DNA of 64,000 bases, from IMG/VR virus record IMGVR_UViG_3300047160_027173, positions 32,001 to 96,000 of that record. The stretch is one strand, 5' to 3'. Positions 25,939 through 51,789 of this stretch are shown here, one piece after another. The position numbers and the translations under genes were made by a program. Position 1 is the stretch's first letter. The number at the start of each line of letters is the position of its first letter. The notes under the pieces are model-generated. The model saw nothing but the letters and a program-made list of their open reading frames with translations, was not told the DNA's origin and made no database searches. This DNA is from a virus.

Positions 25939-25953
25939 GGTTCGTGTTATAGT
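25925..25953 (+). promoter_or_regulatory. sigma70-type promoter
   Basis: TTGATT-17 nt-TATAGT with extended TG, upstream of a run of small plus-strand genes. Confidence 0.7.
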
Positions 25954-25992
25954 GTAGTTCGTGGACATTCTCATCCACTGATCGGAGACATC

Positions 25993-26463
25993 GTGTCGAA
26001 GAAGGTCAGCATCACCGAAGTCCGCAAGCAGCTCCGCACGGAGATGAAGGCCATGGCCCTGCACTACCAGGCGCCGGTCGAGCTGGATGCCCGCTTCGAG
26101 GGCAAGCTCAAGGCCCTGCCGGCGGCCCGGACCGAGGCCCAGGCCCAGTACCTGATCATCGCCAAGGCCCGGCTCCTGACCGGCTACCAGACGCACCTGC
26201 TGAGCCTCTGGGCCCAGGGGAAGATCGACGGCCCCCGGACCCCGGAATCCCTGGTGAAGAAGGCCGACAAGCTCGACAACCTGGCCAAGTTCATCGAGAC
26301 CAAGGGCAACACCGAGAAGGCCTACGAGTACCGCCGCGAGGCCATCGGCCTCCGCAGTGAGGCCGTGGAGCTGGAGAGGTCCAGGGCCCGCAACAAGGGC
26401 ACGTCCGTGGACTCGGACCTCGGCGAGGAGATCACCCTGGCGAGGCCCCCGCGCCAGAGTTAA
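25993..26463 (+). CDS. Hypothetical protein
   Basis: GGAGA RBS and phage-typical codon usage. Confidence 0.7.
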   Translation: MSKKVSITEVRKQLRTEMKAMALHYQAPVELDARFEGKLKALPAARTEAQAQYLIIAKARLLTGYQTHLLSLWAQGKIDGPRTPESLVKKADKLDNLAKFIETKGNTEKAYEYRREAIGLRSEAVELERSRARNKGTSVDSDLGEEITLARPPRQS

Positions 26464-31864: not shown

Positions 31865-32398
31865 CTAGATTGCGGAGCTGCCGCCGACTACGTCGAGGAA
31901 CTGTGTGTCAACTCCGTTAAGACAGTTCAGGGCTCGGGTGTAGTACTTGCGGCGGACGTCGAGACTGGCCTGTGTGGCGCCCTGTCCGTTGATCTTGCGG
32001 GTGGCACCGTCGCAGTCGTTGGCGTCGGCGAAGGCGTTGAGGTTGAACTTCATCCAGAACCAGGTGCAGACGGCGGCGTTCTTCTGGATGGCCTCCTCGG
32101 GATGGTTCACGAGGTCGATGCCGATGGCGTCACCGCAGGCCTTGTAGTTGTACTTCCAGGTCAGCTGAATCCACGACCGACCGTAGTAGGGCACGTAGGC
32201 CTTGCCGGTCCAGGACATGGGGTCCTCTTCGAGGGCGCGAAAGTAGTCGGACTCGACGCCGAGCTGGGCGACGATGAGGGCCACGCGCTGCTTGCTGTCG
32301 GCCTTGCAGGAGATGAGAATCGCGTTCAGGTCCGCGATGGCGAGACCGGCTTGCGACGCAGGGCAGATGGCCTGTAGCTGGTCAGCTGTCAGCTGCAC
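31865..32398 (-). CDS. Endolysin, glycoside hydrolase family 19
   Basis: 'AQLGVES..F...EE', 'YYGRSWIQLTWKYNY', 'TRKING'. Confidence 0.85.
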   Translation of the reverse strand: MQLTADQLQAICPASQAGLAIADLNAILISCKADSKQRVALIVAQLGVESDYFRALEEDPMSWTGKAYVPYYGRSWIQLTWKYNYKACGDAIGIDLVNHPEEAIQKNAAVCTWFWMKFNLNAFADANDCDGATRKINGQGATQASLDVRRKYYTRALNCLNGVDTQFLDVVGGSSAI

Positions 32399-43190: not shown

Positions 43191-43213
43191 AGGAGTCTCT
43201 AACAACAGGACAG

Positions 43214-43286
43214 TTCCCCCGCTACGACTCGAACGTAGATTTTCGGATTCAGAGTCCGACGGGCTGCCAATTACCACCACGGGGGA
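43214..43286 (-). tRNA. tRNA-Gln(CUG)
   Basis: Cloverleaf; loop CTCTGAA. Confidence 0.9.
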
Positions 43287-43291
43287 TCAAG

Positions 43292-43365
43292 CTCCAGGGG
43301 TTGGGATCGAACCAACCTAGTCCGAATTAACAGTTCGGCGCAGTCACCCTGATTGCTACCCTGGA
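43292..43365 (-). tRNA. tRNA-Asn(GUU)
   Basis: Loop CTGTTAA. Confidence 0.9.
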
Positions 43366-43374
43366 ACACTACAG

Positions 43375-43446
43375 AGCGGGAGAAGGGGATCGAACCCTCG
43401 GCCCTCGCCTTGGCAAGGCGATGCTCTACCGCTGAGCTACTCCCGC
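43375..43446 (-). tRNA. tRNA-Gly(GCC)
   Basis: Loop TTGCCAA. Confidence 0.95.
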
Positions 43447-43459
43447 ATGCGGTACGACA

Positions 43460-43532
43460 TGGAGCTTGTGGGGGTCGAACCCACGACCTCAACACTGCCA
43501 GCGTTGCGCTCTCCCAACTGAGCTAAAGCCCC
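43460..43532 (-). tRNA. tRNA-Ala(GGC)
   Basis: Loop CTGGCAG; G3:U70. Confidence 0.95.
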
Positions 43533-43918
43533 GGAAACTTCTCGTAGGTTGCTGCGTAGTGGATGCCCGTCTTCTGCCCATTCAACGGCGGAGTCAGTCG
43601 CAGCTGGCCGGGACCGTCAAGGGGAATCCAATAAACGACGTCCTTGTGCACAACGGCGAAGAGATCAATCTCCTCGGCTGTGTACTTCCGCCGCACGCCC
43701 GGACGTGGGTAGGACTGTTTCGGGAAGGCAATGGCTGTACCACCTCTCACCAACTGCCCAGTCTTGACCTGGACCCGGATCAGCTTGGTACCGACCTCGA
43801 CGAGGAGGTCGCAGCGCCCGCCATCCCCAAAGGGGAGGTAGGGGACCAGATTCTCTCGGAGGAGCCAACTGGTCACAATCGCGAGCGAGCGGTTCCCGAT
43901 GGCGCTGGTGTTCTTCAC
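43523..43918 (-). CDS. PD-(D/E)XK endonuclease (group I intron-associated family-like)
   Basis: 'PFGDGGRCDLLV....IRVQVKT...KYTAEEIDLFAV'. Confidence 0.85.
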   Translation of the reverse strand: MKNTSAIGNRSLAIVTSWLLRENLVPYLPFGDGGRCDLLVEVGTKLIRVQVKTGQLVRGGTAIAFPKQSYPRPGVRRKYTAEEIDLFAVVHKDVVYWIPLDGPGQLRLTPPLNGQKTGIHYAATYEKFPGL

Positions 43919-43942
43919 GTTCTGTACTTAACACCGACACAG

Positions 43943-44014
43943 AGCCCGCGCTCGGAGTCGAACCGAGTCCTTCCGTCTTACAAGGGCGGCGCTCTCCCTC
44001 TGAGCTACGCGGGC
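43943..44014 (-). tRNA. tRNA-Thr(UGU)
   Basis: Loop CTTGTAA. Confidence 0.9.
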
Positions 44015-44016
44015 AA

Positions 44017-44085
44017 TACCCCCGCCCGGACTCGAACCGGGGAGGCTGGTTTAGGAAACCGGCCGCTGACTCCATCAGCGGGGGC
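44017..44085 (-). tRNA. tRNA-Arg(CCU), reduced D-arm
   Basis: Loop TTCCTAA; short D region. Confidence 0.75.
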
Positions 44086-44089
44086 GTGA

Positions 44090-44160
44090 AGCTCCGGGGC
44101 AGAGTCGAACTGCCGTCTCCAAGGTACGAGCTTGGCGTTCTGCCGTTGAACCACGAGAGC
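44090..44160 (-). tRNA. tRNA-Thr(CGU)
   Basis: Loop CTCGTAC. Confidence 0.85.
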
Positions 44161-44163
44161 GTG

Positions 44164-44250
44164 CGGAGCCACGAGGATTCGAACCTCGGTAACGGTTTCC
44201 CGTCAACTGGTTTAGCAAACCAGCGCCTTCAGCCTCTCGGCCATGGCTCC
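44164..44250 (-). tRNA. tRNA-Ser(GCU)
   Basis: Loop TTGCTAA; long variable arm. Confidence 0.9.
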
Positions 44251-44253
44251 ATG

Positions 44254-44324
44254 TCGGTGATGGTGGAGTCGAACCACCGTCGAAGCGTTATGAGCACCCC
44301 GTCCTGCCGTTGAACGAATCACCG
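44254..44324 (-). tRNA. tRNA-Met or Ile2 (CAU)
   Basis: Loop CTCATAA; wobble-rich anticodon stem. Confidence 0.75.
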
Positions 44325-44329
44325 ATGAG

Positions 44330-44404
44330 ATGCGGACCCGAGAGTCGGACTCGGTATCTCCAGCTTATGAGGCTGGCGTGGTTCTTCCGTTCCACTCGCC
44401 CGCG
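44330..44404 (-). tRNA. tRNA-Met(CAU), initiator-like
   Basis: 5' CGCGGG with C1:A72 mismatch; loop CTCATAA. Confidence 0.8.
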
Positions 44405-44406
44405 AG

Positions 44407-44477
44407 CAGGCCGTGAAGGAGTCGAACCCTCACCAAGGGGTTTGGAGTCCCTTGTGCTACCGCTACACCAACGGCCT
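44407..44477 (-). tRNA. tRNA-Trp(CCA)
   Basis: Loop CTCCAAA. Confidence 0.9.
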
Positions 44478-44481
44478 ATAA

Positions 44482-44552
44482 TGCTCCCTCTGAGAATCGA
44501 ACTCAGATCGCGACCGTACCAGGGCCGTGCTCTTCCACTGAGCTAAGGGAGC
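44482..44552 (-). tRNA. tRNA-Thr(GGU)
   Basis: Loop CTGGTAC. Confidence 0.9.
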
Positions 44553-44980
44553 TTGCGCTGCTGCTTCCAGGTCCGAACGCGATGGCAGTTCGCGCAGACC
44601 AGGTCGCACTTGGCGATCTCTTCCAGGACACGCTGCTTGTTGAAGCCTGTCACGCGCATCATGGAGACGTTCTCGGTTTTCTGCGTCGGATCGCGGTGGT
44701 CGAAGTCCATGACGTACGGCGGATACTTCACACCGCAGTCCATGCAGGGATGGTCCTTGATCTCATGGATCATGACATCCAGCTCAGCTCGGTGCTTGAT
44801 CTCACGTCGCCGAGCCTTGTCCTTGTACATCTTCGGGTTCTCCAGGTAGTGATTCCGGTGATACTCGGCCTGGCAAGGCTTGCACTTACCGATGCGGCCG
44901 TCCTTGCTGCGCGCGTTCTTGTGGAACTCGCCCAAGGGCTTCTCGACCTGGCACGTGTTGCAGCGCTTCATCCGGATCAT
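44543..44980 (-). CDS. HNH endonuclease with N-terminal zinc finger
   Basis: 'KRCNTC...CKPC', 'PCMDCG.....VMDFDH', 'EIAKCDLVCANCHRVRT'. Start reassigned because the track extension runs through tRNAs. Confidence 0.9.
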   Translation of the reverse strand: MIRMKRCNTCQVEKPLGEFHKNARSKDGRIGKCKPCQAEYHRNHYLENPKMYKDKARRREIKHRAELDVMIHEIKDHPCMDCGVKYPPYVMDFDHRDPTQKTENVSMMRVTGFNKQRVLEEIAKCDLVCANCHRVRTWKQQRKLP

Positions 44981-44989
44981 ATAACAGTG

Positions 44990-45062
44990 GGCGGCCACTC
45001 GGACTCGAACCGAGATCTCAAGGCTTGGAAGGCCTGCGTCTTGCCATTGGAGCCATGGCCGC
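44990..45062 (-). tRNA. tRNA-Gly(UCC)
   Basis: Loop CTTCCAA. Confidence 0.9.
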
Positions 45063-45065
45063 GTA

Positions 45066-45151
45066 CGGAGGAAGTAGGAATCGAACCCGGCCGCTTGCGC
45101 AGCTTCCGGTTTTCGAGACCGGCGAGAGCACCATTGCCCTCCGCTTCCTCC
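45066..45151 (-). tRNA. tRNA-Ser(CGA)
   Basis: Loop CTCGAAA; long variable arm. Confidence 0.85.
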
Positions 45152-45154
45152 ATG

Positions 45155-45226
45155 TGACCCCACCGGGTGTCGATCCCGGTCCTGCAGCGTGAGAGGCTGC
45201 TGACCTAGCCGGTAGTCTATGGGGCC
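45155..45226 (-). tRNA. tRNA-Glu(CUC)
   Basis: Loop CTCTCAC. Confidence 0.9.
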
Positions 45227-45296
45227 AAAAATAGGGGTCGGGGGCAGATGTTATCCCCGACTGCTTCAGGCGCGTCCGCCGCTGTGCTTTCCCCAG

Positions 45297-45368
45297 TGCA
45301 GCCTAGTGGGATTGAACCACTGACCTCCCCCGTGTCAGGGGGGCGCTCTTCCGCTGAGCTAAGGCTGC
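45297..45368 (-). tRNA. tRNA-Val(GAC)
   Basis: Loop CTGACAC. Confidence 0.9.
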
Positions 45369-45371
45369 ATG

Positions 45372-45443
45372 TCGAAGGACTGGGACTCGAACCCAGAACG
45401 CCGGCTTCCGACGCCGGAAGGTTAGCCATTACCTCATCCCTCG
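45372..45443 (-). tRNA. tRNA-Pro(CGG)
   Basis: Loop GTCGGAA; C1:G72. Confidence 0.8.
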
Positions 45444-45448
45444 ATGTA

Positions 45449-45521
45449 TTGCGGAACTCCGGGTCGAACGGAGATCTACGGGTTCAAAGCCCGCCGGGCT
45501 GCCAGTTACCACCATTCCGCA
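45449..45521 (-). tRNA. tRNA-Gln(UUG)
   Basis: Loop CTTTGAA. Confidence 0.85.
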
Positions 45522-45522
45522 G

Positions 45523-45595
45523 AGACAGATGCGAGAGTCGAACTCGCCTCTTCGGGGTTGCAACCCGAGGCCCTCACCGCGAGGACGAATCTGTC
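45523..45595 (-). tRNA. tRNA-Cys(GCA)
   Basis: Loop TTGCAAC; U73. Confidence 0.85.
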
Positions 45596-45597
45596 GT

Positions 45598-45670
45598 TGA
45601 GTCTGCTCGGATTCGAACCGAGAACGCATGGTTTAAAAGACCAGTGTGATAGCCGTTTCACCACAAACTC
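45598..45670 (-). tRNA. tRNA-Lys(UUU)
   Basis: Loop CTTTTAA. Confidence 0.85.
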
Positions 45671-45673
45671 GTA

Positions 45674-45754
45674 TGGGCAGGGAGGGACTCGAACCCTCAA
45701 GCCTTTCGGCGCTGGCTTCTGAGACCAACGTGTATACCATTCCACCACCGGCCC
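45674..45754 (-). tRNA. tRNA-Leu(CAG)
   Basis: Loop CTCAGAA; long variable arm. Confidence 0.9.
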
Positions 45755-45757
45755 GTG

Positions 45758-45831
45758 TGCCGCGGGAGGGACTCGAACCCTCACAATCCAGACTCTCAGT
45801 CTGGCACGTATACCAATTCCGTCACCTCGGC
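45758..45831 (-). tRNA. tRNA-Leu(GAG), short variable arm
   Basis: Loop CTGAGAG; Leu-type D-arm. Confidence 0.85.
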
Positions 45832-45835
45832 ATGC

Positions 45836-45907
45836 AGCGCTGCAGGGAATCGAACCCTGAACTCCACGTTCGTAGCATGGCGTGATGAATCCGTTTCACC
45901 ACAGCGC
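45836..45907 (-). tRNA. tRNA-Arg(ACG)
   Basis: Loop CTACGAA. Confidence 0.85.
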
Positions 45908-45910
45908 CAG

Positions 45911-45984
45911 CACGACCGAAGGGAATCGAACCCTCATCACCGCCTTCGGAGGGCGGTACTCTTCATCCGTTGAGCTACGGTCGC
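45911..45984 (-). tRNA. tRNA-Arg(CCG)
   Basis: Loop CTCCGAA. Confidence 0.9.
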
Positions 45985-45986
45985 AG

Positions 45987-46071
45987 TTGAGGAGGAGGGA
46001 ATCGAACCCTCTTGTGAGATCGTCACACCGGTTTTACAGACCGGCGTCCCTTCCAGTGGAACCTCTCCTCA
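45987..46071 (-). tRNA. tRNA-Tyr(GUA)
   Basis: Loop CTGTAAA; long variable arm. Confidence 0.85.
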
Positions 46072-46072
46072 G

Positions 46073-46144
46073 TAGTTCCTCAGGGGATCGAACCCTGGAC
46101 CTTCGCCTTGTAAGGGCGCCGCTCTTCCGCTGAGCTAAGGAACT
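46073..46144 (-). tRNA. tRNA-Val(UAC)
   Basis: Loop CTTACAA. Confidence 0.9.
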
Positions 46145-46147
46145 GTG

Positions 46148-46218
46148 TAGGCTCGTAGGGAATCGAACCCTCGTCATGCGCCTATCGAGCGCAGGTCTTA
46201 CCACTAGACGACGAGCCA
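46148..46218 (-). tRNA. tRNA-Ile(GAU)
   Basis: Loop TCGATAG (C33). Confidence 0.8.
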
Positions 46219-46219
46219 G

Positions 46220-46293
46220 TCGAGAGACCGAGATTCGAACTCGGAACGAAGGCTTCCAAGGCCAACATGATACGCAGGTTTCAACATCTCTCG
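46220..46293 (-). tRNA. tRNA-Pro(UGG)
   Basis: Loop CTTGGAA. Confidence 0.8.
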
Positions 46294-46297
46294 TTGA

Positions 46298-46371
46298 TGC
46301 ATCGGGGAGGACTCGAACCTCCACTGGTCGGGGTTTGAAGCCGCTGTCTCCTACCGTTGGACTACCGATGC
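46298..46371 (-). tRNA. tRNA-Leu(CAA), short variable arm (alternative register gives UCA)
   Basis: Anticodon arm AGCGGCTTCAAACCCCGA pairs imperfectly in either register. Confidence 0.65.
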
Positions 46372-46373
46372 GT

Positions 46374-46444
46374 TGGACCGCCGGGGAATCGAACCCGGGT
46401 TGACCGGTTAAGAGCCGGCTGTTCTACCATTGAACTAGCAGTCC
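46374..46444 (-). tRNA. tRNA-Lys(CUU)
   Basis: Loop CTCTTAA. Confidence 0.9.
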
Positions 46445-46445
46445 G

Positions 46446-46527
46446 TGAAACGCCCTGTTGCTCTTCCTTTAAGCTAGCCGCCCCATACGGGACGGCGCCG
46501 GATTCGAACCGGCATCACAGGGTCTAG
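46446..46527 (-). ncRNA. Circularly permuted tRNA-like (YrlA-like) RNA
   Basis: Order on the minus strand: CCCTGT, T-arm GCCGG TTCGAAT CCGGC, acceptor hairpin GCCGTCC-CGTATG-GGGCGGC, D-arm TAGCTTAAAGGAAGAGC, ACAGGG. Confidence 0.75.
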
Positions 46528-46599
46528 TTGCTCCGAACGGGTTTGAGCCGTTACCCTCCCAGGTAGAAGCTGGGCGCTCTCTCATTGAGCTACGGAGCA
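46528..46599 (-). tRNA. tRNA-Arg(UCU)
   Basis: Loop CTTCTAC. Confidence 0.85.
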
Positions 46600-46600
46600 G

Positions 46601-46672
46601 TGGAGTCGCAGGGAGTCGAACCCTGAATTTCTGGGTGCAAACCAGATGTGTTCCCGCTAGCACTACGACCCC
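46601..46672 (-). tRNA. tRNA-Ala(UGC)
   Basis: Loop TTTGCAC; G3:U70. Confidence 0.9.
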
Positions 46673-46675
46673 ATG

Positions 46676-46748
46676 CGCCTTCTCTTGGTTCCGACCCAAG
46701 GTCTCCGGCTTTTCAGACCGGCGCTTCCACCAGGTTAGCTTAGAAGGC
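46676..46748 (-). tRNA. tRNA-Phe(GAA)
   Basis: Loop CTGAAAA. Confidence 0.85.
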
Positions 46749-46751
46749 AAG

Positions 46752-46823
46752 CACCTCGTAGGGGTTTCGATCCCCTCTCTTCGGCTTGAAAGGCCGAGGA
46801 CCTCACCAGAAGTCGAACGAGGC
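46752..46823 (-). tRNA. tRNA-Glu(UUC)
   Basis: Loop CTTTCAA. Confidence 0.85.
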
Positions 46824-46827
46824 ACAG

Positions 46828-46895
46828 CGTATCCCCCGAGAATCGAACTCGGCTTAGCCGGTTAACAGCCGGCCCTAGGACCCAGCACGGGACAC
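46828..46895 (-). tRNA. tRNA-Asn(GUU)-like, shrunken D-arm
   Basis: Good acceptor, anticodon and T arms; D region only ~12 nt. Confidence 0.65.
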
Positions 46896-46972
46896 AAGCT
46901 CCCTCCACTTCGTGCACAAGTCCGCTAAGGGTCTCGGCCAATGCCGACGCGGTTACGGGGGGAAGAACCCAG

Positions 46973-47044
46973 CGCTCCGTACGAGGGTCGAACTCGTCTC
47001 AACTGCTAGACAGGCAGTCTGCGACACCGGTCGCATCACGAAGC
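46973..47044 (-). tRNA. tRNA-Asp(GUC)
   Basis: Loop CTGTCTA. Confidence 0.85.
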
Positions 47045-47046
47045 AA

Positions 47047-47120
47047 GGGCGATTGTCCGGTATCGATCCGGAACTGCGAGGGTCACGACCTCGCGTGCAG
47101 GCCACTACACTACAACCGCC
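47047..47120 (-). tRNA. tRNA-His(GUG)
   Basis: Loop TCGTGAC (C33); C73. Confidence 0.85.
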
Positions 47121-47206
47121 ATCATCTATTCCGCGCTAAGCCTCTTCATCGGGTCCACCGTGAGGCCGCTCCTGGGCACTGTGACTACTCCATCATCTCC
47201 GTTCTG

Positions 47207-47689
47207 TCAACGGCCGATCACCTTGGCCTTGACGACGTGGTCGCCGAGGTGGGTCGCAGCCCACGACTCCGGCTTCAGAACACAGTACAGCCCCTGGCTG
47301 ACGACCATTGCCGTCAGCTCCTTGACGTACAGGCTCGACTTGAACTTGACGTTCGGGTTGGCGTCGACGTGTACCTCCAGGCTGCTTTCCTTGTTGAGCA
47401 TGGGCTCCAGCTCCAGAGCCAGCTGAACGCTGTGGAAGACCTCGCGGAGCAGGCGCTCGCGAAGCGACTTGATGCGGTCGGCGGTCTCCACGGTGTAGAA
47501 GGCACGGCCGCCCTTGCCGGGCTCGTGGACGGCGACCACGGTCACGAACTGCGTGACCTTGCCGTCCTGCTGGCTGTCGGTGCCGACGTAGACAGTCCGC
47601 TGGCCGGCGAGAGCCTCGCGGATCACCGCCAGGGGCTCGGCCAGGACTGCTCCGTCTACCGTCTTCCACCTCTTTTCGAACATGCTCAC
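47207..47689 (-). CDS. RNase H-like YkuK (DUF458) family protein
   Basis: 'VYVGTDSQ...FVTVVAVH..GKGG', 'LRERLLREV..S', 'EVHVDAN', 'KPESWAATHLGDH'. Confidence 0.9.
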   Translation of the reverse strand: MSMFEKRWKTVDGAVLAEPLAVIREALAGQRTVYVGTDSQQDGKVTQFVTVVAVHEPGKGGRAFYTVETADRIKSLRERLLREVFHSVQLALELEPMLNKESSLEVHVDANPNVKFKSSLYVKELTAMVVSQGLYCVLKPESWAATHLGDHVVKAKVIGR

Positions 47690-47704
47690 GTTTGCTTCCT
47701 TTCT

Positions 47705-47744
47705 GAAACGACGAAGGGGCCCGCGGTTTCCCGGGGGCCCCTTC
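47705..47744 (-). terminator. Intrinsic terminator (attenuator 3:4 hairpin)
   Basis: GAAGGGGCCC-CCGG GAAA CCGC-GGGCCCCTTC followed by GTCGTTTC, ending ~15 nt before the ykuK-like start. Confidence 0.75.
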
Positions 47745-47767
47745 CATGGTCTATCTGGTCTCTCGGA

Positions 47768-47905
47768 TCAGTCCATGGAAGGGGCGGTATCGGGCTTGAT
47801 GCTGAAACCGCCCTCGGTACCCTGATTCGGGCACACGACGACCGCGGCGGCCCGAAGGGACGCGCGATACCACATCGTATGCAAGGACAGAGCTTCCAAG
47901 TTCAT
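47768..47905 (-). CDS. Putative attenuator leader peptide (45 aa from ATG, 43 aa from TTG 47899) containing all 20 amino acids
   Basis: AGGAG RBS. MNLEALSLHTMWYRASLRAAAVVVCPNQGTEGGFSIKPDTAPSMD*. The last codons overlap the antiterminator arm. Confidence 0.65.
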   Translation of the reverse strand: MNLEALSLHTMWYRASLRAAAVVVCPNQGTEGGFSIKPDTAPSMD

Positions 47906-47916
47906 CTCCTGACGAG

Positions 47917-47942
47917 CTAGATTGAGGGCGACACTATAACAC
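47917..47942 (-). promoter_or_regulatory. Tandem promoters: extended -10 (TGtTATAGT) plus late motif CAATCTAG
   Basis: GTGTTATAGTGT is identical to the 12-mer at 25944-25955. The late motif is at 47917-47924. Confidence 0.65.
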
Positions 47943-47958
47943 AGCCGCCCGACAGCCG

Positions 47959-48279
47959 CTACTTGGGCTGCTTCACCCGGGTCAGGGCCGAGTTGAGGAC
48001 GTCGTAGAGGTCCTGCTGGCTGCAGCGGTCCTGGGGGAAGTCCTCGTTGAACTTCTGGCAGCGGTCGCCGAGAAACTCGAACAGGTCCTTGACGGTGGCC
48101 AGCAGCCATTCGTAGCGGTAGTGGTTGGGGCGCTCGCCGCGGGCGATCTGCTGCCTGATCATCTCCCGCTGGCGGATGCCGTAGCGGAGCTTGCTGTCGT
48201 TGTCGCTGACCAGGCGCCGGAGGACGTCGATGGCGTTGTCCAGGGTGCGGTCGTCGATCTCGGTCACGGTGTCGGTCAT
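47959..48279 (-). CDS. Hypothetical protein
   Basis: MTDTVTEID..., coupled by ATGA to the upstream gene. Confidence 0.65.
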   Translation of the reverse strand: MTDTVTEIDDRTLDNAIDVLRRLVSDNDSKLRYGIRQREMIRQQIARGERPNHYRYEWLLATVKDLFEFLGDRCQKFNEDFPQDRCSQQDLYDVLNSALTRVKQPK

Positions 48280-49097
48280 AGGCTCTTGGTCACGGAAACA
48301 ATGAACTTGTCTTTGATCTTCTCTTCCCACTGCTTCAGCGCCCACACCGCGGCCTCGTCGAGGAACTTCTTCGCTTCCAGGCCCGGATGGACCCAGCGCC
48401 CGCTGCCCTTCATCTTCGAAGAGGCCGTTCGGAATGTTACCACAGACCTCCGCATCTTCTCCTCGCCGTTCTTATCCTTGTAGGGCTTCTGGTAGACGCG
48501 GACGCCGGCCAGGAAGGGGACGCCGGTCGGGCCCTGGCGGGGAGCGCCGATGGGCCCATGCCCCTGGCCAGGACCGCTCCCGTCCTTCAACGGAGCCGTG
48601 AGAATGTCAAAGCTGTGAATGAGGCCCTGCTTGGGCTGGCCGGCGGCATCACTCTCTAGCCCGCCCCAGGGGATGCCGCGGTCCTTCATCTCCTGCTTGA
48701 TGGTGGAGGTCAGGTCTCGCTGGGCCTGGGTCTGTTGGGTGGGGCCCTTCTTGTGCTCGAAGGGCACAGCCAGGTACTTGCTGCCGTCCGCGGCGGTCTT
48801 CGTCGACTTGGACTTCAGGAGGTCGTCGATCATCTCGTGCTCGTCCATGCCTTCCTCGATCCACATGGCGTCGGGGTCGAGAATGATGGACCAGGTATCG
48901 GCGTCCACCTGTTCCACGTGCAGCGCCTCCAGATACTTCTCGCGGCTACTGTGGAGCTTGGCCTGGACCTCTTCGATGATGTGGGCCTCGGTCTGGATGA
49001 CGAGATCCTGCAGGGCCTTCTTGCTCTCGGTCGCAGCAACATCTTCCAGGTCCTTGAGGGACAGGAGGTCGCCGATGTCAAGGTTGAGGTAGATCAC
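48276..49097 (-). CDS. Probable neck/virion morphogenesis protein
   Basis: 'WIEEG...MIDDLL...YLAVPF.H', 'VTFRTAS....WVHPG'. Structural operon context. Confidence 0.6.
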   Translation of the reverse strand: MIYLNLDIGDLLSLKDLEDVAATESKKALQDLVIQTEAHIIEEVQAKLHSSREKYLEALHVEQVDADTWSIILDPDAMWIEEGMDEHEMIDDLLKSKSTKTAADGSKYLAVPFEHKKGPTQQTQAQRDLTSTIKQEMKDRGIPWGGLESDAAGQPKQGLIHSFDILTAPLKDGSGPGQGHGPIGAPRQGPTGVPFLAGVRVYQKPYKDKNGEEKMRRSVVTFRTASSKMKGSGRWVHPGLEAKKFLDEAAVWALKQWEEKIKDKFIVSVTKSL

Positions 49098-51595
49098 TGT
49101 TGGGGCAGGTCGCCGTCCGAGTAGTGCTCGGGCTGCGCTTCGGGCTTGTCCTTGGGCAGGCCACCTGGATGCTTGGCGCTGGTCGGGCGGCCAGTCGGGC
49201 TCGGGACGACACCGGAGCGCATGGCCTGCCAGCTGCTGTGACCGTCGGCGTGGGCTACCTTCCTCTTGCCGCCCTCACGGGCTCCGCTGGGGCTGGTGTC
49301 CTTCTGGCTGCCGTCGGGGAGGATGACGTTGTGCCTGCCGGTCTTGCCGGCCTCGGTGGCGGCCTTCTCCAGCTCCGAGCCGGGCTTGATGCCCTGCTTG
49401 GTCGGATCCAGGTCGGTGCCGTCGTGCAGCCGAATCCACTGATGGCTCTCGCCCTTTGGGGTCTCGCCAACGACGGCCTCATGGGGAATGCGGTGGTGAC
49501 GAAGGGTATCGCTGAGCAGCTCGGCGGCATCGTCACAGAAAAGGAACTCGCCACGACCGATGTGCCCGGCAATCTCACCCTCGTGCGCACCGATAAGGTC
49601 GCTCATTTCCTGGGGAGACTTCGCACCGCGGAGCTTCTTGGCGATGTGCCCGGGGATGTGAGCTAGCCTGAGACCGCGGGGCTTCGACTCAGCCTTCTCG
49701 ACCATGTCGGGCTCGGCCGCGGCCAGCTTCTGCGGCAGCTGGACGTCGAGCAGGCGACCGGCCATGTCGGCGGCGCCAGCCGGGTGGCTCTGGTGCGGCG
49801 TCACGAGGAGTTCGGTCTGGGCACCGGAGTTGCGGCCAAACCCAACCGAATGACTGGGGTCGAGCAGGTCGAACGAGGTGCGGACACTCTTAGTCGGCAC
49901 CCAGCTGATGTACGGGCGCATGCCCTTGCCAATGGGGCTGTCGCCCTTCGGATAGAGCTTGTGAGAGTAGCTGGCGAGCGCCTGGTCCGGAACGCGCTTC
50001 ATCCCCAGCACGCCCTTGTCGTCCAGGTACCGGGCCAGTGGCACGTGGGGCTCGCCGTTGATCATCTTCGACTTGGGCAACAGCGCCTTCTGGACCTGCA
50101 GATAGTGCTGATGGGCCTCATCGACGAGGTGGGAGTTCTTCACCAGCGAGGACGCCAGTTCGGCCACGTTCGGGATCTCGTGCTTGCTCGCGGCCAGACC
50201 GGCGGCGTGCTTGAGTCCGGCCATGAACCTCTGGTCCGCGTGCTGCGGATCGCTGTTGTACGAGGCCATGTTCTCCATGCGATGGTGGAGGTAACGGAGC
50301 AGCTGGGCCTTCGGCGTGTGCGCGTTCTTCTTGTAGCTGTTGTGGAGGTCCTTCAGGTCGTGGACTGCCTTGCCGGCCCGATGACCTTCCACAGCCAGCT
50401 GGAAGGCCAGTTCATCTTTTGGGCTTGGAGGGCCCTCGCTCTTGGCGAGGCCAGCCTCGGCGAGCAGTCCCTGGATGGCCTTTGAATCAAGGCCCTCCGC
50501 CTCCAGACGCTTGACGGTGTTCGCCATGGCGATGGCGGCCTGCTCGGGACGGTCCTGCTTGAACTTCGCGATGGCGCGAAGGGTATTCTTCGCGTGCGCG
50601 AGGTCCTCTTCGGGGGTCGTCGGGCGGGTACCGTGCTCCAGCGTGTCCGTCTCGTCAGGCGGAGTGCTGTTGCGGTTGTGGTCGGTGGCGATGAAGCGGC
50701 CCTGCTCGTCGCGGGGATGAGTCTTGGGGTCGAAGATGTCGGCCTTCTGCAGGCCCTTGCTCATGCCCTCGACCTCGGCGGGCTCGCCTTCCTCGGGGTC
50801 CTGGGGGGCGGCCCAGAGCGTGCGGCCCATGGCGATCATCGTCTGGGCCATCTGATTGACGGCCTCGGCAATCTCCGGGTTCTGCTGCTGGAGCAGGGCC
50901 AGGGTCTGGGGGTTGCCCTTGAGCTGCTGGAGGATGGCGGCGATCTTCATCTTCAGGGCGTCGTTGGCGGCGTCCTGAGCGTGGGCCTCGGCGTCGGCCT
51001 TCTGCTTGTCGGCGGCGGCGTGGAAGTCCTTGAGGAAGTCAGCGGGCTGCTTCTCTTCCTTGGCGCCTTCCTCACCGTGGCCGCCTTCCATGTGCTGCAT
51101 GAGCTGCTGCATGTGGGGGTCGTCGACGGTGCCCTGGATGGCCTCTGGAGTCTCCTCGGCGCGGGCCAGGTACTCGTGGCCGAGCTTCTCCTGCTCGTCC
51201 TGCTGGAGCTGGAGGTTCTGGATGGTGTTCTCGACGTGGGGGCCGTAGGTGACGATGCGGTCTTTCCCTTCGAGTTTGGCCACGAGCAGGGCCTTCTGGG
51301 CCTCGCTGAGGCGCATGCCCAAGCCGACGCTGGCGCTGGCGCCCACCAGGGCGTGGTACTGCTGGCGGAGGGTGGGGACCTCGCCGATGCGGCTGGCGTC
51401 GACCTGGACGACGACCTCGTCGCCGCCGGCACTGACGACCTGGCCACCGACACCCAGGGCCCACTTGGTCCAGAGGTCGTTGCCGTCGGTGATGAGCTTG
51501 CTCAGGCGGCGGACCTCGGCCACGTCATCGGCGAGGCTGGCCCGACCGACCTGGGACCCGATGCTGTCGCCGTCGATGCTGACGAAGAGATCCAT
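49094..51595 (-). CDS. Polyvalent virion protein: mCpol-like cyclase/polymerase palm domain, ART-like domain, papain-like domain
   Basis: Start reassigned to MDLFVSIDGD (late motif 9 nt upstream). See findings. Confidence 0.75.
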   Translation of the reverse strand: MDLFVSIDGDSIGSQVGRASLADDVAEVRRLSKLITDGNDLWTKWALGVGGQVVSAGGDEVVVQVDASRIGEVPTLRQQYHALVGASASVGLGMRLSEAQKALLVAKLEGKDRIVTYGPHVENTIQNLQLQQDEQEKLGHEYLARAEETPEAIQGTVDDPHMQQLMQHMEGGHGEEGAKEEKQPADFLKDFHAAADKQKADAEAHAQDAANDALKMKIAAILQQLKGNPQTLALLQQQNPEIAEAVNQMAQTMIAMGRTLWAAPQDPEEGEPAEVEGMSKGLQKADIFDPKTHPRDEQGRFIATDHNRNSTPPDETDTLEHGTRPTTPEEDLAHAKNTLRAIAKFKQDRPEQAAIAMANTVKRLEAEGLDSKAIQGLLAEAGLAKSEGPPSPKDELAFQLAVEGHRAGKAVHDLKDLHNSYKKNAHTPKAQLLRYLHHRMENMASYNSDPQHADQRFMAGLKHAAGLAASKHEIPNVAELASSLVKNSHLVDEAHQHYLQVQKALLPKSKMINGEPHVPLARYLDDKGVLGMKRVPDQALASYSHKLYPKGDSPIGKGMRPYISWVPTKSVRTSFDLLDPSHSVGFGRNSGAQTELLVTPHQSHPAGAADMAGRLLDVQLPQKLAAAEPDMVEKAESKPRGLRLAHIPGHIAKKLRGAKSPQEMSDLIGAHEGEIAGHIGRGEFLFCDDAAELLSDTLRHHRIPHEAVVGETPKGESHQWIRLHDGTDLDPTKQGIKPGSELEKAATEAGKTGRHNVILPDGSQKDTSPSGAREGGKRKVAHADGHSSWQAMRSGVVPSPTGRPTSAKHPGGLPKDKPEAQPEHYSDGDLPQQ

Positions 51596-51759
51596 GCACG
51601 GGCCTAGATTGCCGGATAGAGGAGGTTGCTGGCCGGAAGTCGAGGGCAGAGGTGGTGACTGGGTTGCCGTCCTAAAAGTGGGTCCAATGAGACCCCTCTC
51701 CGGGGCGAGCGGCGCCGGGCTTAAACTGAAGCGGCCACCTCTGCCTACATCTTCGGTGC

Positions 51760-51789
51760 TTGACTCCCGCCCCCGTCCCATGAGATAGT
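51760..51789 (+). promoter_or_regulatory. Probable sigma70-type promoter giving a leaderless transcript
   Basis: TTGACT-18 nt-GATAGT with extended TG. ATG 7 nt downstream, no RBS. Confidence 0.5.

Follow-up and report, generated by a model that had tools for sequence, protein, structure and literature searches.

A structured leader with an all-amino-acid reading frame at the head of a viral ykuK–tRNA unit

On the minus strand of a 64,000-nucleotide stretch of viral DNA (hereafter the window; positions 32,001 to 96,000 of the 130,239-base IMG/VR virus record IMGVR_UViG_3300047160_027173, whose GC content is 65%), a ykuK-like gene and a tRNA array are preceded by a leader (47700–47942) holding a short open reading frame (ORF) that encodes all 20 amino acids. 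Comparison with related loci argues that this leader is a real conserved element, folded as RNA and probably translated. We tentatively read it as the leader of a ykuK–tRNA unit that acts as a ribosome-dependent attenuator, timing a single ribosome over a frame in which every amino acid is required. Rather more doubtful is the further step that it serves as a general sensor of decoding capacity, in which loss of nearly any tRNA would switch on the 34-gene tRNA array and its RNase H-like companion. Such a sensor would supply tRNAs on demand with built-in negative feedback, and might serve as a counter-measure to anticodon nucleases.

The sequence observation behind the original prediction is confirmed: the 45-codon ORF, its 20 amino acids and its 34 distinct codons were reproduced by script. 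The predicted AGGAG ahead of the ORF is present as well; it abuts ATG 47905 without a spacer, whereas the in-frame TTG 47899 lies at the usual 6-base distance, and by comparison with the related locus L013 this TTG is the likelier start. Coverage of the resulting 43-codon version is still 20/20. Codons ending in U, said to be uncommon in the genes of this phage, number nine in the leader (20%, versus 10.8% in genes, P = 0.048). There is no codon run; in each of the five leaders described here the commonest residue occurs 5–6 times and 7–8 residues occur once.

The chance of meeting all 20 amino acids in 45 codons is 0.0013–0.0043 under independent, identically distributed (iid) models, and 0.0078 against stop-free dinucleotide shuffles of the same ORF. 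Full coverage is found in 10 of 4142 open 45-residue segments in all six frames of the 64-kb stretch and in 1 of 2060 in-frame segments of that length from 16 genes of the phage. In the window alone it is thus rare and not decisive. Since a scan of 64 kb could meet one such case, the relatives decide.

Relatives were found via the YkuK protein in scans of viral and metagenome contigs. Four are distinct (L002, L011, L012 and L013), with 49–57% identity; L009 and L016 are the same contig as L002, L010 has the same upstream sequence as L002, and each of three YkuK queries of the viral contigs returned one identical set of 7 loci. All four relatives have, heading the unit, an ORF with a Shine-Dalgarno (SD) sequence 5–9 bases before its start. 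These ORFs have 44, 46, 46 and 50 codons and cover, in turn, 19 (without Trp), 20, 20 and 20 amino acids, so that the expectation of a short ORF with full coverage despite sequence divergence was largely borne out. This result is independent of the start chosen, because all residue types are already present within the last 37–43 codons. Compared with stop-free dinucleotide shuffles, coverage in the five loci gives P = 0.0078, 0.135, 0.027, 0.035 and 0.081 (Fisher p = 3e-4), with 0.13–0.39 of the shuffles per locus staying open. An unremarkable intergenic stretch of 65% GC DNA might be thought to yield such an ORF by accident, as 8 kb of the window hold 81 ORFs of at least 30 amino acids and full-coverage segments occur at the frequency given above. 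We consider this very improbable: the same combination is present in all four relatives, in independent sequences and at a GC content of 44–58%, lower than that of the window.

The position of the leader is informative too. In L011 and L013 a conserved membrane-protein gene, running in the opposite direction, lies 105–134 bases upstream of the leader start, and this divergent intergenic placement makes the leader the first element of the array transcript. A tRNA-Gln(UUG) gene directly precedes ykuK in all four relatives (L002 2896–2970, L011 551–626, L012 2398–2471, L013 477–551). In the window its slot is filled by a hairpin, termed T, and tRNA-Gln(UUG) is found inside the array at 45449–45521. 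That a decayed or unusual tRNA might still occupy the slot was considered and rejected, as 47700–47942 gave no match to the tRNA model even at E ≤ 10.

Of the promoter motifs predicted ahead of the ORF, the putative extended −10 stands, being found again before another gene; the −35 is poor, and a sigma-70 consensus scan does not call the site, nor any other sigma-70-like promoter between 46800 and 48600. The 11-base core of TGTTATAGT occurs exactly twice in the 130,239-base record (reversed control, 0), and TGNTATAGT has 2 matches in the window where 0.14 are expected. The second copy of the core (25944–25954, plus strand) sits between a stop codon and the start of an SD-led GTG gene. The −35 of that copy is better (TTGATT, with a 17-base spacer), and a 156-amino-acid gene starts about 40 bases further on, at 25993. 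The motif may define a promoter class of this phage. Only 24 bases separate the end of T from the start of ykuK. Given this gap and the lack of a called promoter, ykuK, and probably the array too, would be expressed only via passage of T.

Several features point to translation of the ORF. In its frame, GC content at codon positions 1, 2 and 3 is 0.56, 0.51 and 0.78, against a pattern of 0.68, 0.47 and 0.82 in the phage genes, and its codon adaptation index (CAI), 0.461, exceeds that of 98.5% of off-frame 44-codon segments while falling short of that of 87.5% of in-frame ones. GC content at the third position (GC3) is likewise highest in the ORF frame of L013, L011 and L012; the L002 ORF is flat in GC by codon position, and the ykuK gene of that locus has little GC3 bias. 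From GC3 and CAI we infer that the leader ORF is probably translated, and its arrangement, an SD and a short ORF behind a promoter-like motif at the 5′ end of the transcript, is that of an attenuator leader.

The same signs would fit an ordinary small gene that forms the final cistron ahead of the array and is followed by a stabilising or terminating hairpin; its peptide would be functional and its amino-acid coverage incidental. Such a gene too would have an SD and coding-type GC3 and CAI; length is kept at 44–50 codons, and a gene caller found the ORF in a near relative as a 37-amino-acid peptide, P0121. The peptides themselves argue otherwise. While YkuK keeps 49–57% identity, 8 of the 10 peptide pairs align no better than shuffles (score reached by at least 19 of 300 shuffles), with 5–15 identical residues per pair. 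P0121, encoded on a contig with a 98%-identical YkuK, differs from the window peptide by three substitutions and an in-frame two-residue insertion; in this closest pair the peptide thus changes about five times faster than YkuK and keeps its frame. Searches with the leader peptide gave one match in 5.8 billion proteins, from a near-identical phage, and none in Pfam, so that with 8 of 10 pairs resembling shuffles the peptides do not form a conserved small-protein family. Moreover, the RNA of the ORF is under structural constraint and T leaves no space for a separate ykuK promoter. An ordinary small gene therefore appears improbable.

Structural constraint is evident at all five loci, whose leaders fold far more stably than their dinucleotide shuffles (z = −3.91, −4.89, −4.74, −3.78 and −5.15; 0 of 200 shuffles as good in each). 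In the window, a script reproduced the perfect 13-bp duplex that had been predicted between the ORF end and a downstream segment. This helix A, the candidate antiterminator, places the stop codon in a 23-base loop and has a free energy of −28.5 kcal/mol (P = 0.0007 for the last 30 coding versus the next 70 bases). Pairing of the ORF end with a segment 6–34 bases after the stop codon (S2) is present in all five loci with differing sequences, the longest perfect helix measuring 13, 7, 7, 9 and 6 bp (P = 0.0007, 0.070, 0.054, 0.003 and 0.036; Fisher 3e-6). Pairing of the expected kind is thus present in all four relatives. It was assessed by per-locus shuffle tests; the MAFFT alignment places the stop hairpin of L013 out of register by one column.

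In the relatives, the 5′ strand of S2 is contained in the loop of a second hairpin, S1, of 8–12 bp. In L013, L011 and L012 the stop codon is part of the 3′ arm of S1 (P = 0.009, 0.0003 and 0.0003, respectively), and in L002 an 11-bp hairpin ends two bases before the stop codon and is cut by the test window. In L012, S1 and S2 must compete, because both have 12 bp and S2 takes up all but 2 of the 14 bases in the loop; in L002, L011 and L013 the geometry would allow the stop codon to be enclosed in a pseudoknot. The window gives P = 0.89 in the S1 test and has, in the place of S1, a 7-bp hairpin just upstream of A. This hairpin '1:2', predicted as a further arm (GGGCGGT with ACCGCCC) and verified as an exact complement, has a free energy of −15.7 kcal/mol in isolation and pair probabilities of 0.7–1.0 in the full leader, and its 3′ arm overlaps helix A by 4 bases. 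The long hairpin predicted inside the ORF could act as a pause or timing element, and mid-ORF hairpins also appear in the folds of the relatives.

Folding of this strength in five of five loci might also be that of a non-coding structured RNA, either acting in cis or forming a small RNA with its end at T, in which the apparent SD is a helix strand and the frame accidental. Minimum-energy folding of L013, L012 and L002 does pair the SD region, with a CUCC-containing sequence in the 3′ part of the leader, near or beyond the ORF 3′ end; if these pairs form, initiation is possibly limited to the time in which the leader is still being transcribed. The weak match of the window to the Moco riboswitch (24.5 bits) would suit a non-coding RNA as well. 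Set against these points are the frame, open in all five loci with a correctly spaced SD, the GC3 periodicity in that frame, and an amino-acid coverage exceeding that of composition-keeping shuffles. Nor does any Rfam family reach threshold for the leader: a search of 46800–48400 of the window with Rfam 15 (E ≤ 10) returned only tRNA-His above threshold, and all 31 matches in the four relatives and a further array head, L027, belong to the tRNA clan, with no T-box or other family. We give a purely non-coding RNA little probability. The Moco riboswitch match itself, well short of the gathering score of 36 (E = 0.0044 in the 1.6-kb search) and without a counterpart at threshold in the relatives, was rejected as a look-alike caused by a GC-rich hairpin.

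Downstream of A, the GAAA-capped hairpin T (47744–47713) was likewise found as predicted. Its 5′ foot, 47744–47737, consists of 8 bases shared with helix A. The two hairpins had been described as mutually exclusive; this holds for their full forms at the shared bases, whereas shortened forms coexist, the minimum-energy fold combining 7–8 bp of A with a nearly full T. Folding of successive prefixes gave the full helix A once its 3′ arm had been made, and T invading as its own 3′ arm appeared. T has a free inner toehold, and its three lowest pairs have a probability of 0.1–0.5. Within the leader, 47804–47811 (GCGGTTTC, around the 5′ arm of the 7-bp hairpin) could pair without mismatch over 8 bp with 47723–47730 (GAAACCGC, T loop and inner 3′ arm), a possible further competitor of T.

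T, originally predicted to be a terminator, is a strong hairpin with a weak U-tract, and the consensus scan calls no terminator in the window. A hairpin scan of the whole window for the usual terminators of this phage was uninformative, with 239 mostly coding-region hits. In L013, on the other hand, the scan does call a terminator (445–470, 11 pairs, U-rich tail), abutting the tRNA-Gln gene at 477. There the ORF end (403–410) pairs with 445–452, the 5′ arm of the called terminator, and T lines up by eye with this arm in the alignment. Competition between the ORF end and the 3′ arm of a terminator or terminator-like hairpin for its 5′ arm is thus found in both the window and L013. From these sequences, a terminator may be part of the design in two of the five loci at most.

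How the attenuator would work can be set out as follows. A ribosome arriving at the stop codon on time would cover and melt helix A or, in the relatives, the hairpin-plus-loop pairing around the stop codon. With A melted, T would complete to its foot and many polymerases would stop there. Slow decoding at any codon, because nearly any tRNA had been lost or was uncharged, would delay the ribosome, so that A would hold the foot of T and the polymerase would read on into ykuK and the tRNA genes. A, or the knot of S1 and S2, would then be the antiterminator and the whole ORF a timer. Judging from the known size of the ribosome footprint, an attenuator built like that of trp, around a strong 1:2 hairpin, would sense only about 10 codons by segment 1, and the timer would be the only account offered here for selection of amino-acid breadth. 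We infer the steps leading from pairing state to termination, and to the sensing of tRNA loss. The link to anticodon nucleases is speculation.

The ORF, its coverage and the pairing in the relatives are the parts of the attenuator reading that stand; a number of observations weigh against it. T has a weak U-tract and no terminator is called at it. At equilibrium T is favoured (forced A −101.5, forced T −104.8, minimum-energy fold −105.5 kcal/mol), and since T wins there, A could block only the foot of T and only kinetically. Canonical terminators are called in one of the five loci, L013; none is called between the leader and the first tRNA of L011 and L012, and the only terminator-like site of L002 lies within its ORF. 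It follows that the conserved output may not be termination. The 1:2 arm of a trp-type attenuator is weak in the window. Codons readable by the called tRNAs of the phage itself make up 37 of 45 in the leader (82%) versus 85% in genes; a closed feedback loop is therefore not visible in codon choice, the leader being no better matched to the phage tRNAs than the genes are. The sample, finally, consists of five loci with start codons chosen by SD.

These findings bring in another explanation, namely a translated, structured 5′ leader with an output other than tRNA sensing. By remodelling the pairing at the ORF end, a passing ribosome might govern processing or stability of the precursor, for example access of RNase P or RNase E near the first tRNA, or T might be a fixed, leaky terminator that adjusts how much of the array is made; the all-20 composition would be a by-product or serve something else. 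What is conserved is indeed the ORF and the pairing of its end rather than a terminator, which three of the four relatives lack. Furthermore, tRNA-Gln(UUG) follows 12–24 bases after the pairing in the relatives, and T forms at equilibrium whatever A does. A leader that senses nothing, on the other hand, gives no reason for the excess amino-acid coverage, and in two loci the partner of the ORF end overlaps a terminator or terminator-like hairpin. A helix between the ORF end and the 5′ acceptor strand of the tRNA that comes first was also considered and rejected: it reaches a striking 7 bp in L011 and 6 bp in L012 and is not significant over six loci (Fisher p = 0.11). We hold this non-sensing leader to be unlikely.

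A wider sample beyond the close relatives also bears on the attenuator. Three further array heads were read (L025, L026 and L027). L027 resembles the window, with a perfect TTGACA-17-TATAAT promoter, an SD and a 54-codon ORF covering 20/20, 78 bases before the first tRNA. To the points already raised must be added those from the other two: L025 has a homologous SD and a 41-codon ORF that covers only 17/20 (no Cys, Asp or Gly), followed at 1430–1460, between ORF and first tRNA, by a second perfect TTGACA-17-TATAAT, also found in L030, so that the L025 array need not depend on the ORF transcript; the head of the L026 array has no candidate ORF. Nor is there such a leader ORF at the 29-hit tRNA region of Myxococcus phage Mx1. 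A pattern scan for this remoter family returned its two known members and one more contig, L030, whose leader sequence is identical to that of L025. For L027 and L025, competition among three segments near the stop codon was considered and dismissed, the helices of 4–5 bp being too weak. In L004 and L005 a longer ORF immediately precedes ykuK, with no leader in sight, the L003 contig begins inside its array and does not include the head, and the 2 distant YkuK loci in genome contigs are both without tRNAs. On these sequences, full coverage marks the window's own family (20/20 in four of five loci, 19/20 in the fifth) and is not general beyond it. In Mx1 (L029, OR576727.2), inspection by eye shows an unannotated tRNA-like stretch at about 1470–1565, upstream of the first annotated tRNA-Lys, and a GC hairpin with a TTTT tail at 1630–1662, directly before that gene.

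We compared the proposed attenuator with known systems as they are described in textbooks. The leader peptides of trp, his, leu, thr, ilv and pheA belong to ribosome-mediated attenuators and are encoded by ORFs of 14–32 codons. Shared with these are the SD-led ORF at the 5′ end of the transcript, a helix at the ORF end whose partner is the 5′ arm of a downstream terminator or terminator-like hairpin, and the proposed logic, by which transcription ends when the ribosome has reached the stop codon and reads through when the ribosome is late. In contrast, the classic leaders enrich one regulatory codon, whereas the phage leader has every amino acid, mostly once to three times; the phage leaders are longer (43–50 codons); and the classic cargo is biosynthetic enzymes, where here, in a phage, it is a tRNA array with an RNase H-like gene. 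A canonical terminator, moreover, is seen here in one of five loci, and no Rfam leader family matches.

The ermC, cat and bmrB-bmrCD leaders depend on drug-bound ribosomes and specific arrest motifs. In these too, translation of a leader would reflect the condition of the ribosome rather than one amino acid and select between alternative RNA structures; unlike them, the phage leaders have no conserved arrest motif and their peptides are unalignable. T-box riboswitches bind one specific uncharged tRNA directly, without translation. They pose the same question, with tRNA supply or charging controlling translation-related genes through a choice between terminator and antiterminator, but in the phage element sensing would be done by the ribosome and would take in every tRNA. 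The pyrBI leader senses UTP via polymerase pausing, and tnaC senses tryptophan and acts through Rho. Here the outcome would likewise be set by a race between ribosome and polymerase, or by a ribosome parked at the leader stop codon; neither pyrBI nor tnaC makes use of amino-acid breadth. Should the mechanism hold, it would be a new sensing principle within leader-peptide attenuation.

Phage tRNA arrays are seen as aids to codon usage and as counter-defences. Work on phage tRNAs facing the tRNA-cleaving defences retron PtuAB and PARIS appears to concern what the tRNAs do (PMC11555353, PMC11464382); a large set such as the present one could likewise replace depleted host tRNAs. Within the full-text literature that could be searched, which takes in few subscription journals, we found neither leader-peptide control or on-demand expression of a phage tRNA array nor an attenuator covering all 20 amino acids. 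If the sensor is real, selection of a leader for amino-acid breadth would add to attenuators a design principle of a new kind, in which a timer integrates the whole tRNA pool, and the phage would monitor the translation state of its host before investing in tRNAs. The YkuK family is abundant in public metagenomes (421 homologues at E ≤ 1e-20). Should the idea of sensing fail, what is left is a conserved, probably translated and highly structured leader heading tRNA operons and absent from Rfam.

The features of the region are collected in Table 1. The array had been credited with 37 tRNAs, a number to be corrected to the 34 genes called by ARAGORN.

Table 1. Features of the leader and its surroundings (window coordinates)
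Feature	Position	Strand	Details
128-aa (amino acid) gene upstream of leader	stop at 47959	minus	
Promoter-like motif	47932..47946	minus	extended −10 TGTTATAGT at 47941-47933; right after 128-aa gene stop (47959)
Shine-Dalgarno-like AGGAG	47906..47910	minus	0 bases to ATG 47905, 6 to in-frame TTG 47899
Leader ORF	47768..47905	minus	45 codons + TGA (43 from TTG 47899); 20/20 amino acids, 34 codons
Predicted long hairpin inside ORF (about codons 9–25)	47831..47882	minus	minimum-energy folds only
Hairpin '1:2'	47782..47813	minus	7-bp stem, 47813-47807 with 47788-47782; 18-base loop; exact complement
Helix A (candidate antiterminator)	47737..47785	minus	last five codons, 47785-47773, with 47749-47737; 13 bp; exact reverse complement
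Hairpin T	47713..47744	minus	10+3 bp, C.C mismatch, GAAA loop; −27.4 kcal/mol
U-poor tail after T	47705..47715	minus	6 U in 11 bases; runs into ykuK SD GAAAGGAAG; fails the scan's 5 T in 8
ykuK-like gene, first gene behind leader	47207..47689	minus	160 aa; RNase H-like DUF458; Pfam PF04308, E=2.9e-31
tRNA array, presumed regulated cargo	43213..47119	minus	34 ARAGORN-called tRNA genes

Near-identical DNA is present in soil metagenome sequencing runs. Four DNA runs yielded only identical pieces at low depth, with 0 variants and 0 starts or ends, and there is no RNA run among the sequencing runs listed for the stretch. A DNA search of the region against a phage genome collection gave no match, and a virion protein used as query matched one isolate only, Myxococcus phage Mx1, with 36.5% identity across 32% of its length. 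The 128-amino-acid protein encoded upstream of the leader has no match in phages or viral contigs.

In the relatives, as in the window, ykuK accompanies tRNA arrays, heading them or lying inside, a placement that suggests a tRNA-related role for the RNase H-like YkuK protein. Among the 10 distinct phage-like contigs of loci L002–L013, YkuK/DUF458 is found inside or heading a tRNA array in nine (L002, L003, L005–L008 and L011–L013). L004 is without a tRNA in its 3.8 kb, and L014, L015, L023 and L024 are also without one. Within the tRNA array of the window, an ORF of 206 amino acids (44543–45163, minus strand) shows, by eye, Cys/His motifs like those of HNH endonucleases. Upstream of the leader, residues 66–179 of an 895-amino-acid protein (49094–51781, minus strand), near its N terminus, match the mCpol (minimal CRISPR polymerase) domain (Pfam PF18182, E = 4.4e-14).

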